The notes under the pieces: model-generated | The model's database searches: none | Seen by the model: the letters and a program-made list of their open reading frames with translations, nothing else | What the model was told of the DNA's origin: nothing | Origin: a virus | Lineage: Duplodnaviria > Heunggongvirae > Uroviricota > Caudoviricetes | IMG/VR virus record: IMGVR_UViG_2695420485_000017 | DNA: 38,866 bases | Strand: one strand, 5' to 3' | Shown: in pieces, positions 4,501-32,311 of the stretch | Layout: each line of letters starts with the position of its first letter | How positions within the stretch are numbered: position 1 is the stretch's first letter | Position numbers and translations under genes: made by a program

Positions 4501-4502
4501 GT

Positions 4503-4570
4503 TGGTTTTTCTCCACGGATTTACTGACAACCGAAGCCCTGACTGTTCCCGCAGTTGGGGCTTCAACTTT
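4503..4570 (+). ncRNA. sar: Candidate sar-like antisense RNA covering ant RBS/start
   Basis: Plus-strand -10 TACTAT (4491-4496) inside ant 5' end; hairpin GAAGCCC...GGGCTTC at 4532-4562; arrangement as described for P22 sar. Confidence 0.35.
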
Positions 4571-30595: not shown

Positions 30596-31246
30596 ATGAA
30601 AACTCAATTGATGGGAGAGCGCATTCGCGCTCGGAGAAAAGAACTCAAGATCAGGCAGGCCGCACTTGGAAAGATGGTCGGCGTGTCTAATGTTGCCATA
30701 TCTCAGTGGGAACGCTCTGAGACAGAGCCAAATGGAGAGAATCTTCTCGCCCTGGCTAATGCGTTGAAGTGTTCCCCTGACTATCTGATGAAAGGAGAGG
30801 AAAGTCTTTCAAACATTGCCTATCACAGTAGGCATGATCCAAAAGGGTCATTCCCTCTGATTAGCTGGGTGAGCGCAGGATGCTGGATGGAAGCTGTAGA
30901 ACCATATCATAAGCGTGCAATAGATAACTGGTACGATACAACCGTAGACTGTTCAGAAGATTCGTTTTGGTTGGACGTGAAGGGAGACTCAATGACGGCT
31001 CCGGCCGGTCTCAGTATCCCTGAAGGAATGATAATACTCGTCGATCCTGAAGTAGAGCCGCGTAACGGGAAACTGGTAGTTGCAAAGCTCGAAGGAGAAA
31101 ACGAGGCAACTTTCAAGAAGTTAGTTATTGATGCAGGCAGGAAGTTTCTAAAACCACTTAACCCACAATATCCGATGATCGAGATCAACGGAAACTGCAA
31201 AATCATCGGCGTAGTTGTCGATGCAAAACTAGCAAACCTTCCATAA
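30596..31246 (+). CDS. c2: C2 repressor (LexA-like, S24 autopeptidase domain)
   Basis: 216 aa, near-identical to recalled P22 c2 (MKTQLMGERIRARRKELKIRQAALGKMVGVSNVAISQWERSETEP...GDSMTAP...). Confidence 0.95.
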   Translation: MKTQLMGERIRARRKELKIRQAALGKMVGVSNVAISQWERSETEPNGENLLALANALKCSPDYLMKGEESLSNIAYHSRHDPKGSFPLISWVSAGCWMEAVEPYHKRAIDNWYDTTVDCSEDSFWLDVKGDSMTAPAGLSIPEGMIILVDPEVEPRNGKLVVAKLEGENEATFKKLVIDAGRKFLKPLNPQYPMIEINGNCKIIGVVVDAKLANLP

Positions 31247-31268
31247 GGGGCATTCGCCCCTTTTTTTT
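31247..31268 (+). terminator. Rho-independent terminator after c2
   Basis: GGGGC-attc-GCCCC followed by T8, immediately after c2 stop. Confidence 0.75.
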
Positions 31269-31289
31269 ATTTCCTTTAAAAATCAAAGC

Positions 31290-31371
31290 CAAACTTAAGT
31301 TACGAAAGAAAATTTAAGTTTTCTTCAAAAATACTCTTGACCATTAATTAAAGAGATCTTAAATTTAAGCC
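31290..31371 (+). promoter_or_regulatory. OL operators and PL promoter
   Basis: Repeated CTTAAG/TTTAAG operator half-sites; -35 TTGACC (31337-31342), 17-nt spacer, -10 TAAATT. Confidence 0.6.
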
Positions 31372-31410
31372 ATCAGCAGGACGCTGGAAGCCAAACGGAA
31401 CAGATTGGCA

Positions 31411-31451
31411 GGCTCTTTAACATTGATGGGATTGTCCCGCCGAAATGCGGG
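31411..31451 (+). promoter_or_regulatory. nutL (boxA and boxB)
   Basis: boxA GGCTCTTTAAC and hairpin CCCGC-cgaaat-GCGGG. Confidence 0.6.
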
Positions 31452-31810
31452 AACTGAGTTTAACCAAACAGGAGGTGCCGTAATGGTGCACTAACGCGGT
31501 TAGACAGCAGCCGAAAGGCAATGCAGCAGTAATGATGCTGCCCCGAGTCGCGTAATGGCGAGCAGGTTTAGCAGACCGATGTGAGGGTAAATAAGGGAAC
31601 ATGCTCCGGAAAGGCAGCGCGAATGCCAGACGCGCACCGGTTATCAGCGGCTAATAAGCGACAGAGACTCAAGGGCATGAGCGCGCTCACTGCGAGAGTG
31701 TGAGTCAAAGAGTAGTTGGCTTTGGGGTGACGTGAAGTGCAGCTGCACGACGGCAACCGGAAGATAAGCACCCGGCGCGTCACCGCCAAAGTCAATCATC
31801 GGAGGTCAAC

Positions 31811-32083
31811 ATGGCAGTAGTCATTACATATCTGGCTGACGATAACGCCAGAAATCGTCGCAGAGCACGCAGACAGGCTCAACGTGAACAGGCGATGCAA
31901 GAGCAGCGACTGGCGCGAAAAATTGCGCTAAAGCTCTCTGGTTGCGTCAGAGCAGATAAAGCAGCATCACTCGGAAGCCTTCGCTGCAAGAAGGCAGATG
32001 AATGCAGTGGAAGTATTTGCCTGCCAAACGTAGCCATTTACGCGGCAGGCTACCGGAAATCAAAACAACTGACGGCGAGGTAA
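31811..32083 (+). CDS. N-like antiterminator (P22 gene 24-like)
   Basis: 90 aa with arginine-rich motif NARNRRRARRQAQRE near N-terminus; GGAGG RBS; first gene of PL operon. Confidence 0.6.
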   Translation: MAVVITYLADDNARNRRRARRQAQREQAMQEQRLARKIALKLSGCVRADKAASLGSLRCKKADECSGSICLPNVAIYAAGYRKSKQLTAR

Positions 32084-32086
32084 GTG

Positions 32087-32311
32087 ATGAATCAGACATA
32101 CATTCCATCATGCTTGAGAAATCTGCCAAAGCAGAAAGCAAAGCCCCGCAAGCAAGCCATAAAGGACGCTAAGGCAGAGGTTATTGATCAAGCAATACAA
32201 TTGCTCAGGGAGGAGTTAAGAAGTGGCAAGCTCGAAGGAATGATGATGCCATATCAGCGCGGATATCTATCGGCGATTAGTAAGTTGGAAGTATTGAAGA
32301 GTGAATTATGA
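32087..32311 (+). CDS. Hypothetical early protein
   Basis: 74-aa ORF starting 4 nt after N-like stop; basic N-terminus. Confidence 0.45.
   Translation: MNQTYIPSCLRNLPKQKAKPRKQAIKDAKAEVIDQAIQLLREELRSGKLEGMMMPYQRGYLSAISKLEVLKSEL

Follow-up and report, generated by a model that had tools for sequence, protein, structure and literature searches.

Why should a leader of several hundred nucleotides separate the nutL antitermination site from the N-like gene of this tailed phage, when a close relative manages with far less, and what does the additional RNA do? A preliminary description of the window (the whole 38,866-nt stretch of DNA analysed) had put the distance between nutL and the N-like start at about 360 nt. 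With the N-like ATG at 31811 the distance from boxB to the start codon is 356 nt, and the region is indeed GC-rich, as had been claimed (55%, against 47% for the window as a whole). The elements that make up the locus are arranged as follows.

31245-31270: cI terminator, upstream of the pL-type promoter
31337-31365, + strand: pL-type early-left promoter (TTGACC, 17 nt, TAAATT), found by consensus scan at the position of the pL annotated in HK620
31412-31454, + strand: nutL, with boxA GCTCTTTAACA (31412-31422) and the boxB hairpin GTCCCGCCGAAATGCGGGAAC (31434-31454)
31455-31705, + strand: RNA-module insertion, 251 nt extra relative to HK620
31706-31810: HK620-type N leader, 105 nt common to HK620
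31716-31795, + strand: long N-leader hairpin TTGGCTTTGGGGTGACG ... CGTCACCGCCAAAGTCAA with the palindrome GTGCAGCTGCAC inside it, outside the insert and common to HK620
31801-32083, + strand: N-like antiterminator gene (90 aa, coding part 31811-32083) including its Shine-Dalgarno sequence GGAGG (31801-31805)

The N-like product matches the Pfam family N_peptide (E = 2.1e-15), and sequence comparison finds boxA and boxB of the window identical to the nutL annotated in HK620. That phage shares its N leader with the window, has an N gene that is closely similar, and at the corresponding point reads ...GCGGGAAC followed immediately by CAAAGAGTAG, a junction at which the window carries 251 additional nucleotides. 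Set side by side, the two phages show the 356-nt leader to be composite, a leader of the HK620 type that has received a 251-nt RNA module as an insertion. A profile built for the module family (nhmmer) scores 190 bits at 31466-31703, the sole copy in the window, which lies roughly 100 nt from the predicted start of pL.

The same module recurs well beyond this locus. Members of the family were found in at least 120 IMG/VR contigs, in 37 Enterobacterales species, in 113 of 5426 complete E. coli genomes (about 2%) and on 19 plasmids. Across Enterobacterales the carriers are lambdoid and P22-like prophages, Stx2c phages, phage-plasmids and conjugative plasmids. It always lies in sense orientation inside long phage or plasmid operons, most often in their leaders: after pL/nutL, after Q and tR', between the lysis and the packaging/terminase genes, and ahead of plasmid pilus (pil/T4SS) operons. 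Either nutL or a tR'-like terminator is often its close upstream neighbour; a hairpin or terminator just upstream of the Shine-Dalgarno sequence amounts to a weak trend (mean MFE -10.2 versus -7.6 kcal/mol, a U-tract in 17 of 96). Genes upstream include 27 cI-type repressors (and five CI HTH-domain matches, which may overlap with these), 13 Q proteins and a few lysis proteins of the Rz/Rz1 type, while those downstream are unrelated to each other, encoding N, holins, DUF2560/HNH/terminase or TcpQ/Pil proteins. Some copies sit in mid-operon rather than at a 5' end (between lysis and terminase genes, and in mEp213), and the RothC copy occupies the site between Q and the lysis genes, beside tRNAs, with two hypothetical proteins annotated over it on the minus strand. 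No fixed order relative to nut holds, since in one locus (L089) the module precedes boxA and starts about 25 nt from the pL start. A NusG paralogue is encoded two genes upstream in one plasmid group, from Pectobacterium; the idea that plasmid copies always have one was rejected, as the genes upstream in Pantoea bear no relation to those in Pectobacterium, and the upstream genes inspected in Pantoea and Rahnella plasmids contained neither a NusG paralogue nor a Pfam match. Judged by this distribution the module is an accessory, mobile element that close relatives such as HK620 do without.

The family fold, compact and comprising about ten helices and a pseudoknot, takes up some 210 nt after the minigene described below, the whole module measuring about 250 nt. 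Helices H1-H4 are followed by P5 and the pseudoknot, P6 with H7, the variable H8, Hc and H9, and the nucleotides joining them are highly conserved. In the copy of the window these parts, together with the minigene and its ribosome-binding site as read directly from the sequence, are placed as follows.

31470-31475, + strand: Shine-Dalgarno sequence AGGAGG of the minigene, with a 7-nt spacer to its ATG
31483-31494, + strand: minigene ATG GTG CAC TAA (M-V-H-stop)
31496-31508, + strand: H1 hairpin GCGG-TTAGA-CAGC, with a G·A mismatch in the window copy (the consensus 3' arm is CCGC)
31510-31519, + strand: H2, a variable peripheral hairpin GCC-GAAA-GGC, from the family alignment and direct reading
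31523-31541, + strand: H3 hairpin GCAGCA-GTAATGA-TGCTGC, six of six pairs changed on both sides among homologues
31548-31561, + strand: H4 hairpin TCGC-GTAATG-GCGA, preceded by conserved CCCGAG, three of four pairs changed on both sides
31562-31605, + strand: P5 region, conserved joiner (G)AGGGT(A/T)AAT and pseudoknot 3' strand
31606-31640, + strand: P6 (CCGG/CCGG) around H7 (GCGCG-AATGCCAGA-CGCGC), loop GCCA conserved
31641-31667, + strand: variable H8 region, in at least three alternative versions across the family alignments, without confident pairing
31668-31704, + strand: 3' domain, with Hc CTCA-AGGGCA-TGAG, CGCG, then H9 CTCAC(T)GC-GAGA-GTGTGAG

That the leader is highly structured, with several strong palindromes, had been proposed from the window sequence itself, and the palindromes are where they were said to be: GCAGCA...TGCTGC at 31523-31541 is H3, while GTGCAGCTGCAC (31737-31748) and GGTGACG/CGTCACC (31726-31732 and 31778-31784) belong to the N-leader hairpin. 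The claim of high structure holds for the two parts of the leader on different grounds. For the 3' 105 nt it is borne out by thermodynamics (MFE -46 kcal/mol, z = -3.59, none of 200 shuffles as good), whereas the 5' 250 nt are thermodynamically unremarkable on either strand (z = -1.0 for plus, -0.2 for minus) and owe the claim to covariation among homologues. Members were gathered with the nhmmer profile and base pairs were counted manually in the alignments, where 97.3% of cells are paired and 27 of 50 pairs, or 259 cells, have changed on both sides. The covariation score is 0.29, compared with about 0.03 for slid partners, none of 500 shuffles was as good, and the result was repeated with the plasmid members included. 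A conserved RNA structure in 31455-31705, preserved far beyond chance, is thus strongly supported by the pattern of substitution. Invariant G·U pairs assign the RNA to the plus strand.

Individual elements differ in how they vary. All five pairs of H7 have changed on both sides, in P6 G-C pairs have turned into G·U and a single pair has both sides changed, and the H9 stem covaries around a loop that may be GAGA, GAAA, CGG or CCGGGA. Hc was invariant in the first set of members and goes from U-A to C-G in Pantoea plasmids, and H2, which in other members is longer, different or missing, was left out of the pair counts. In long variants both P5 and a 6-bp pseudoknot covary (one pair, for instance, is C-G in 13 and U-A in 12), and in short variants with a 3-bp pseudoknot a pair is C-G in 26, A-U in 13 and U-A in four. 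The window belongs to a sub-variant in which P5 is degenerate and the pseudoknot is formed by loop AGC (31570-31572) with GCT (31603-31605). A conserved alternative pairing was not found in the family alignments, H7 covarying freely while the look-alike GAGCGCG stays constant.

The mini-ORF with its perfect AGGAGG, singled out in the preliminary description, was confirmed and acquires its meaning from the family. An AUG precedes H1 in 111 of 122 distinct members, and in 108 of these 111 it does so at a distance of 12-14 nt; a GGAGG, AGGAG or GAGG motif accompanies it in 95, and in 106 it is followed by zero to two sense codons and a stop. The peptide itself is not conserved, at least 24 different 'peptides' being represented, a bare start-stop among them, and the minigene is retained in plasmid copies. 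Taking the aligned members together, the mini-ORF is a hallmark of the RNA family, about 9% of which have no AUG or H1 and some no 5' part at all. Its ribosome-binding site is predicted to be only averagely accessible (pairing probability 0.47, compared with 0.58 for the rest of the module).

The remainder of the leader is of a more familiar kind. In lambda a long hairpin lies between nutL and the N ribosome-binding site and is a site of RNase III action involved in N autoregulation. A long, stable and conserved hairpin likewise stands between nutL and the N Shine-Dalgarno sequence here, at 31716-31795, and its basal stem covaries among N leaders; by this analogy it is probably an RNase III-type site. 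The likeness to lambda is confined to the HK620-type part, the inserted module being unrelated and occurring also in places where there is no N gene. The earlier proposal of an RNase III-processed leader consequently fits the 3' 105 nt, and does not extend to the mobile module at 31455-31705.

Searches against known families returned little. Against Rfam 15 at the gathering threshold, the only match in the whole window was sar RNA at 4501-4568; a scan of 31200-32100 at E <= 10 placed only isolated, chance-level matches to eukaryotic families on the module (a snoRNA model at E = 8.5, for example), and nine loci with diverse members scanned at E <= 5 gave no match over it. Literature searches by exact sequence strings and by concept retrieved no description of the module, which therefore appears to be an undescribed RNA family, absent from Rfam 15 and from the literature searched. 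Prophage sRNAs of the Pas, AgvB and AsxR type were rejected as candidates, being different, small and already in Rfam, with no match here. Mimicry of or complementarity to rRNA was likewise set aside, a 10-nt complement to 16S rRNA 837-846 and a 9-nt identity to 5S rRNA being at chance level for the size of the search. In the whole genome of HK022, the family profile (nhmmer --max) found two chance matches (E = 2.2 and 7.4), neither of them in the early-promoter regions that hold put.

What the module might do is suggested by its setting and by its minigene, and the reading that we tentatively prefer, as possible rather than probable, is that of a cis-acting ribosome-loading leader element for long antiterminated transcripts. 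Acting within the very operon transcript that carries it, the module would be bound by a ribosome at its Shine-Dalgarno sequence and AUG as it leaves RNA polymerase. Because the spacing from AUG to H1 is fixed, the folded domain may be positioned at the mRNA entry site of that ribosome, and the minimal length of the minigene would ensure that the ribosome never unwinds it. The particle that RNA and ribosome would thus form at the transcript's head could then shield or insulate the long RNA behind it, made by an antiterminated, fast polymerase that outruns the ribosomes, from Rho loading and from 5'-end entry by RNase E. In the window the module would exert this effect on the pL transcript, after N has loaded at nutL and ahead of the N gene, and the hairpin at 31716-31795 would remain an N-specific control element, probably sensitive to RNase III. 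Several observations sit uneasily with this proposal. A passive shield needs no conserved, tertiary-type structure of some 210 nt, and its benefit is not obvious since a polymerase modified by N or Q is already Rho-resistant. Copies in mid-operon, the members devoid of AUG or H1 and the merely average predicted accessibility of the ribosome-binding site also count against it, as do the mismatched H1 and degenerate P5 of the window copy; and an accessory distribution in which HK620 lacks the module would suit a cargo gene equally well. A bolder variant, in our estimation quite unlikely, would have the folded domain hold the elongating polymerase (modified by N, Q or a NusG paralogue) in the manner of put while the minigene holds the ribosome, so that a protein-independent 'pseudo-expressome' would block Rho and take the ribosome along an operon of 10-25 kb; or, in more general terms, the module might represent a naturally occurring bacterial RNA whose structured domain is docked at the mRNA entry site of the ribosome.

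The main rival to the cis-acting leader element, in our view a doubtful but substantial one, regards the module as a stable cargo RNA (a 'moron') cut from early or late transcripts and acting in trans on the host, be it as a ribosome-docking pseudo-mRNA, a decoy or an anti-defence RNA, with a bound ribosome at the 5' end and H9 at the 3' end as its stabilisers. Its patchy, accessory spread speaks for such a role, and the early-left operon, the interval from Q to lysis beside tRNAs (RothC) and that from lysis to terminase are classical moron sites; moreover, the module belongs to the earliest RNA transcribed from pL, and a specific partner is suggested by how complex it is and by the invariance of its junction nucleotides. 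Against this, neither a promoter nor a terminator belonging to the module was seen and it is always in sense within an operon, it strongly favours leaders, at positions immediately following the sites where antiterminators load, and its presence in the leaders of plasmid pilus operons is hard to square with an RNA for phage take-over. The genomic logic would also accommodate an RNA processive antiterminator akin to HK022 put, Bacillus EAR or conAn2, whose folded domain binds polymerase and makes it resist pausing and termination: the module lies just downstream of early promoters, or else at the head or in the interior of very long mobile-element operons, conjugation operons included (PMC9378689; PMC8191782), its length of about 250 nt is close to the 260-600 bp of conAn2 and is counted here as within range, and the Pantoea and Rahnella plasmids offer no NusG paralogue among the upstream genes inspected that might do this work instead. 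Nevertheless, nhmmer detects no similarity to HK022 putL or putR, and put has only about 70 nt and two stems; the function would be redundant because most carriers already encode N or Q, and a conserved ribosome-binding site and minigene would be left without a role. On balance an antiterminator of this kind seems unlikely.

A sensor leader, whether a riboswitch or a leader-ORF attenuator of the mgtA/mgtL or corA/corL type, that sets Rho-dependent termination or N translation according to ribosome availability or a ligand would share its architecture of long leader, upstream ORF and conserved structure with enterobacterial attenuators, and would be well placed before N, the level of which decides phage development. 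We hold it to be improbable: sensing of an amino acid is impossible with zero to two variable sense codons, the family has neither a conserved alternative pairing nor a conserved tie to a downstream ribosome-binding site or terminator (the downstream genes being unrelated), and Rfam yields no riboswitch match. Very little likelihood attaches to the idea that the whole 360 nt constitute an N-specific, RNase III-processed leader or a small sRNA gene. The long conserved hairpin that immediately precedes the ribosome-binding site of N reproduces the lambda arrangement, yet HK620 has the same N leader and no module, and the module occurs with unrelated downstream genes and has no promoter or terminator of the sRNA type. 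The distribution of the module accordingly refutes an N-specific reading for 31455-31705, and the classical short sRNA that had also been suggested is unlikely because no promoter or terminator of its own was seen. Lastly, the chance that there is no RNA feature at all, and that the region is explained by a small coding sequence on one strand or the other, by a site acting at the DNA level or by palindromes that arose by chance, is next to nil. Both strands do admit open reading frames of 40-75 aa, and hypothetical proteins have been annotated on the minus strand in RothC, but insertions and deletions are located in helices, the compensatory changes and the invariant G·U pairs are specific to one strand, and all six frames, anchored on the conserved block, average at least 2.4 stops across 51 members, with no Pfam match over the module and no gene annotated there by PGAP.

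An apparently undescribed pseudoknotted RNA of about 250 nt, equipped with a minigene of one to three codons, would thus have been sitting in the phages and plasmids of E. coli, which are among the most thoroughly studied genetic elements. It is found at or near the engagement sites of three unrelated antitermination systems, namely N/nut, Q and, in one plasmid group, a NusG paralogue, and this location raises the possibility that it is a missing piece in the expression of very long mobile-element operons when transcription outruns translation. Should it instead act in trans on ribosomes, it would represent a new type of phage and plasmid effector RNA. An Rfam entry is merited in any case and would better annotate thousands of prophage regions that are now blank or called spurious ORFs. 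The module is also short and portable.

Among known systems the closest parallel to the minigene is provided by barI and barII of lambda, which lie on the pL transcript and run from a Shine-Dalgarno sequence and AUG through one or two sense codons to UAA, with no meaningful peptide. These bar minigenes, reportedly the work of the Guarneros laboratory, depend on a specific AUA (Ile) codon in an AT-rich context and have no fused conserved structured domain; known from their toxicity in pth mutants, they have to our knowledge no positive role. The minigene of the window matches this architecture, whereas codons within the family vary (K, V, H, Q, L or none) with no AUA seen, the distance from AUG to H1 is held at 12-14 nt, and some 210 nt of covarying structure follow. 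The puzzle of the bar minigenes thereby gains a conserved natural setting. The mgtA-mgtL and corA-corL leader-ORF/Rho attenuators have in common with the module a long structured leader with a short ORF, but their ORFs run from 8 to more than 17 codons, contain sensing codons and toggle alternative structures, where the module offers zero to two arbitrary sense codons and lacks a conserved alternative fold.

Large and folded RNAs embedded in mobile operons offer further points of comparison. Like HK022 putL and putR, the module is a folded, cis-embedded RNA just downstream of lambdoid early promoters that would serve long operons and require no dedicated protein gene. However, put is an RNA of about 70 nt with two stems that binds the zinc-binding domain of the RNA polymerase beta' subunit in a phage that has no N (PMC9378689), while the module, at about 250 nt and about ten helices, bears a minigene, has no sequence similarity to put and is carried by phages with N or Q. 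In position and size it resembles conAn2 and the Bacillus EAR element, large RNAs that occupy the beginning or the interior of very long mobile-element or accessory-cluster operons, though these belong to another phylum and both lack a conserved ribosome-binding site and minigene. The Rfam scans, in which EAR is one of the families, placed no EAR match on the module; conAn2 (260-600 bp), which shows little conservation and acts together with the ConAn1 protein, heads the conjugation operons of Gram-positive conjugative plasmids (PMC8191782), much as the module precedes pil operons. GOLLD and ROOL, finally, are prophage-associated orphan large RNAs of about 580-800 nt from other phyla, present in Rfam and devoid of a minigene (10.1101/2024.12.08.627333). 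No match to either was found here, and what the module shares with them is the character of a complex, covarying phage RNA that sometimes lies beside tRNA genes, as does the copy in RothC.

The window belongs to a P22/HK620-like temperate phage, in which a full-length sar antisense RNA (RF00262, 95.6 bits) at 4501–4568 (+) marks the P22-type immI (ant) region. The interval from the repressor to the N-like gene contains the following elements.

30596–31246: cI-type repressor gene, followed by a terminator
31245–31270: strong intrinsic terminator directly after cI (GGGGCATTCGCCCC, then T8)
31337–31365: pL-like promoter
31412–31422: nutL boxA, identical to the annotated HK620 nutL
31434–31454: nutL boxB, identical to the annotated HK620 nutL
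31470–31475: AGGAGG Shine-Dalgarno sequence
31483–31494: minigene ATG GTG CAC TAA
31523–31541: palindrome GCAGCA...TGCTGC
31726–31732 and 31778–31784: GGTGACG pairing with CGTCACC
31737–31748: palindrome GTGCAGCTGCAC
31811: start of the N-like gene (90 aa; Pfam N_peptide match, E = 2e-15)

The terminator is the counterpart of HK620 tIMM, and sets the repressor transcript apart from pL. The AGGAGG, mini-ORF and three palindromes reported in a preliminary description all stand where it had placed them, and the leader is indeed GC-rich (55%, vs. 47% for the window).

HK620 shares pL, nutL and the N leader with the window, and its N gene is closely similar, but its boxB and N start codon are only 107 nt apart. 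Exactly at the HK620 junction (...GCGGGAAC|CAAAGAGTAGTTGG...) the window carries 251 additional nucleotides, 31455–31705. On this sequence comparison the window leader is a composite, an HK620-type N leader interrupted by a 251-nt insertion (the module), and the remaining 105 nt (31706–31810) are a normal HK620-type N leader. The latter folds into a long hairpin spanning 31716–31795 (z = −3.59, with 0/200 shuffles as good), whose basal stem covaries among divergent N leaders: GUGACG/CGUCAC in the window, GAUUGGAUG/CAUCCAAUC in Stx2c phages, GUGUGGUG/CACCACAC in Hafnia phage yong1 and AUGUGGUG/CACCACAU at another locus (L142). By analogy with lambda, this hairpin is a plausible candidate for an RNase III-sensitive element controlling N translation. 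The earlier proposal of an RNase III-processed, N-specific leader survives for 31716–31795 only, and does not extend to the inserted module. Phage mEp213 (L002, 91–1848) has two N genes, the second of which lies with a module and an HK620-type leader in a block three small genes beyond the first; the left junction of this block is half a boxB, suggesting that module, leader and N moved together by recombination inside nutL.

A blastn search with the insert alone identified copies at 77–99% identity in mEp213, two Stx2c phages, yong1, Klebsiella phages RothC and RothD, phiKO2, mEp237, E. coli phages 733R5 and 716R3, and Providencia phage PSTCR7lys. At least 120 IMG/VR contigs match an exact 23-base pattern taken from the module 3′ block, and a degenerate 3′-block pattern matches 38 DNA stretches in a species-genome collection, including Citrobacter, Enterobacter, Klebsiella, Kluyvera, Pectobacterium, Erwinia, Proteus, Chimaeribacter and many Xenorhabdus; 37 of these were upheld by profile search. 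A pattern match in Bifidobacterium catulorum (L153) drew no profile match and is due to chance. Since members were gathered by 3′-block patterns, variation in that block is under-sampled, and came to light only through blastn matches on plasmids and 733R5-type phages. The module occurs in 113 of 5426 complete E. coli genomes, always on the chromosome, and in 19 PLSDB plasmids from Pantoea, Rahnella, Pectobacterium, Yersinia, Klebsiella, Providencia, Enterobacter and Erwinia. Xenorhabdus yunnanensis XENO-10 has at least four copies on separate contigs (L135, L149, L163, L167); as in some other Xenorhabdus genomes, the matches at L135 and L149 and the stronger of two partial matches at L163 cover only the 3′ half of the profile, suggesting a divergent 5′ domain in this genus. 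A full-length copy (177 bits) on a contig labelled Vagococcus sp. WN89Y, a Firmicute (L151, 389–635), probably reflects contamination or mis-binning. Klebsiella phage vB_VIPKPNMC05 (L009, 1475–1571) retains only the Shine-Dalgarno sequence through hairpin H4, with minus-strand ORFs annotated across this truncated copy and just downstream, and its copy looks like a decayed remnant. The Rfam scan proposed in the preliminary description yielded sar elsewhere in the window, and no Rfam 15 family matched any module member examined; literature searches, run both on sequence strings and on concepts, turned up no account of the module.

The module structure was assigned from 52 aligned non-redundant members (alignment A3), and in window coordinates comprises the following helices and hairpins.

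31496–31508: hairpin H1
31510–31519: variable hairpin H2
31523–31541: hairpin H3
31548–31561: hairpin H4, preceded by the conserved joiner CCCGAG
31562–31580: P5, with an optional inserted hairpin P5a
31570–31572 with 31603–31605: pseudoknot between the P5 loop and the strand just 5′ of P6
31606–31640: P6 enclosing H7
31641–31667: variable region H8
31668–31681: hairpin Hc
31686–31704: terminal hairpin H9

The pseudoknot has 6 bp in long variants and 3 bp in short ones. The window copy belongs to a sub-variant with a degenerate P5 that also occurs in mEp213 and PSTCR7lys; its H1 has one G·A mismatch of its own. Standard pairs occupy 97.3% of cells in A3, and both partners have changed in 27 of 50 pairs (259 cells), bearing out the structured character claimed for this region over 31455–31705. 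The covariation score is 0.292, compared with 0.014–0.057 when partners are slid by 1–3 columns, and none of 500 shuffles reached the observed pairing values, a statistic that overstates independence because module sequences are phylogenetically related; the control with slid partners and the large number of independent pair types nevertheless argue that the signal is real. Addition of plasmid copies (alignment A4) gave the same pairing result; here Hc shows a compensatory replacement of U-A by C-G, and the stem of H9 is retained beneath different loops. Several invariant G·U pairs identify the plus (sense) RNA as the functional strand. The joining segments CCCGAG, (G)GUNAGGGUUAAU, UAAAGCAG, GCCA in the H7 loop, CACCGGUUA and CUCAAGGGCAUGAGCGCG are almost invariant in both alignments, as is typically seen where an RNA adopts a specific tertiary fold or binds a specific partner. 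In invariant stretches of the module, CUCAAGGGCA (31668–31677, the Hc 5′ arm and loop) is a perfect 10-nt complement to 16S rRNA 837–846 and UGCGAGAGU (31691–31699, in H9) is identical to 5S rRNA 95–103, both matches that would be expected by chance for the search size (E about 1–4).

The hallmark of the family is its minigene. An AUG lies no more than 20 nt upstream of H1 in 111 of 122 distinct full-length members, and in 108 of these at 12–14 nt; GGAGG, AGGAG or GAGG lies at Shine-Dalgarno distance in 95 of the 111, and 106 encode 0–2 sense codons before the stop (UAA in 88). Plasmid copies retain the minigene, and its 'peptides' (M, MK, MV, MKH, MKQ, MVH, MHQ, MLK and others) are unconserved. 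Selection thus acts on ribosome binding, early termination and AUG-to-H1 spacing, and not on stop-to-H1 spacing or the product. As for a protein-coding gene supported by homology, which would have spoken against an RNA element, none of the six reading frames remains open throughout the members compared, Pfam has no match in the module, and PGAP leaves the 565-nt cI-to-N interval without any gene; by these measures the module is non-coding.

In annotated loci with a complete copy the genes on both sides share the module strand, the sole exception being the oppositely oriented upstream gene on a Rahnella megaplasmid. A Pfam scan of the ORFs nearest the module on either side, at about 130 distinct loci, found 27 S24/HTH cI-type repressors upstream (and a further 5 CI HTH-domain matches, which may overlap), 13 Q antiterminators and a few Rz/Rz1-type lysis proteins, and downstream 13 N proteins, holins, and DUF2560/HNH proteins, which precede terminase. 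Phage copies occupy the pL leader, usually about 20 nt after boxB; the pR′ late leader, directly after a tR′-like terminator (RothC, mEp237, several UViGs); or the junction of lysis and packaging genes (733R5, phiKO2, pVA126-339). At one locus (L089, 1874–2116, minus strand) the module follows the pL transcription start region and precedes boxA, which puts it upstream of nutL, so its order relative to nut is not fixed. In RothC (L004, 1468–1948) the module comes after Q/tR′ and before a tRNA-Ile/tRNA-Arg pair, beyond which is an HNH endonuclease; the two 'hypothetical proteins' annotated across the module on the minus strand are almost certainly spurious. At three loci of a further alignment (A5) the ORF immediately upstream contains an Acb2/Tad1 hairpin domain (anti-CBASS/Thoeris sponge family), placing the module beside anti-defence cargo in some phages. 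MPF_I/MOBP conjugative plasmids carry the module in their type IVb pilus (pil) operon leader. In Pectobacterium plasmids a NusG paralogue (Pfam NusG, E = 2.7e-6), possibly a specialised antiterminator, is encoded two genes upstream of the module, the order in pLPa1526 (L176, 3431–3940; also L173) being traA, NusG paralogue, hypothetical gene, module, pil operon. The module is preceded by unrelated genes in Pantoea and Rahnella plasmids, and stands ahead of a cluster including an SLT transglycosylase in a Yersinia plasmid. What these settings share is a place at the start of a long polycistronic mobile-element operon, or at a junction within one, with leaders preferred; in most phage cases the operon is read by antiterminated polymerase. 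No promoter or terminator of the module's own was seen in the window or the other loci inspected.

A ribosome would bind the module 5′ end, and with the AUG in the P site the hairpin starting 12–14 nt downstream would stand at the mRNA entry channel, so that the folded domain would be docked on the small subunit; the minigene may be kept this short to spare the domain from being unwound by the ribosome. Position and orientation favour a cis role. Antiterminated polymerase outruns ribosomes and leaves long naked stretches of RNA, hence the tentative proposal that the RNA–ribosome particle may shield the transcript head from Rho loading and RNase E 5′-end entry. A cargo RNA that docks on ribosomes and acts in trans is a somewhat less probable alternative. 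The genomic logic is shared with the processive antitermination RNAs put, EAR and conAn2 (PMC9378689, PMC8191782). A similar activity of the module is nonetheless improbable, since the module has no similarity to HK022, N or Q would make the function redundant, and the minigene would be left without a role. As for the proposed shield, conservation exceeds what a passive one would need, so that a specific partner (ribosome, RNA polymerase or host factor) is likely.

The module lacks at least one defining feature of each known family compared, and is therefore not filed under any of them. The put, EAR and conAn2 elements follow the same operon-head logic, but have no minigene, and no homology to the module was seen in HK022 or, through Rfam, for EAR. 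Leader-ORF attenuators depend on sensing codons and alternative folds; the module has neither, and a sensor-type leader seems very improbable. Lambda bar minigenes reside on pL transcripts and share the minigene design, but without an attached structure. These, together with orphan prophage RNAs such as GOLLD and ROOL, are the closest functional analogues.
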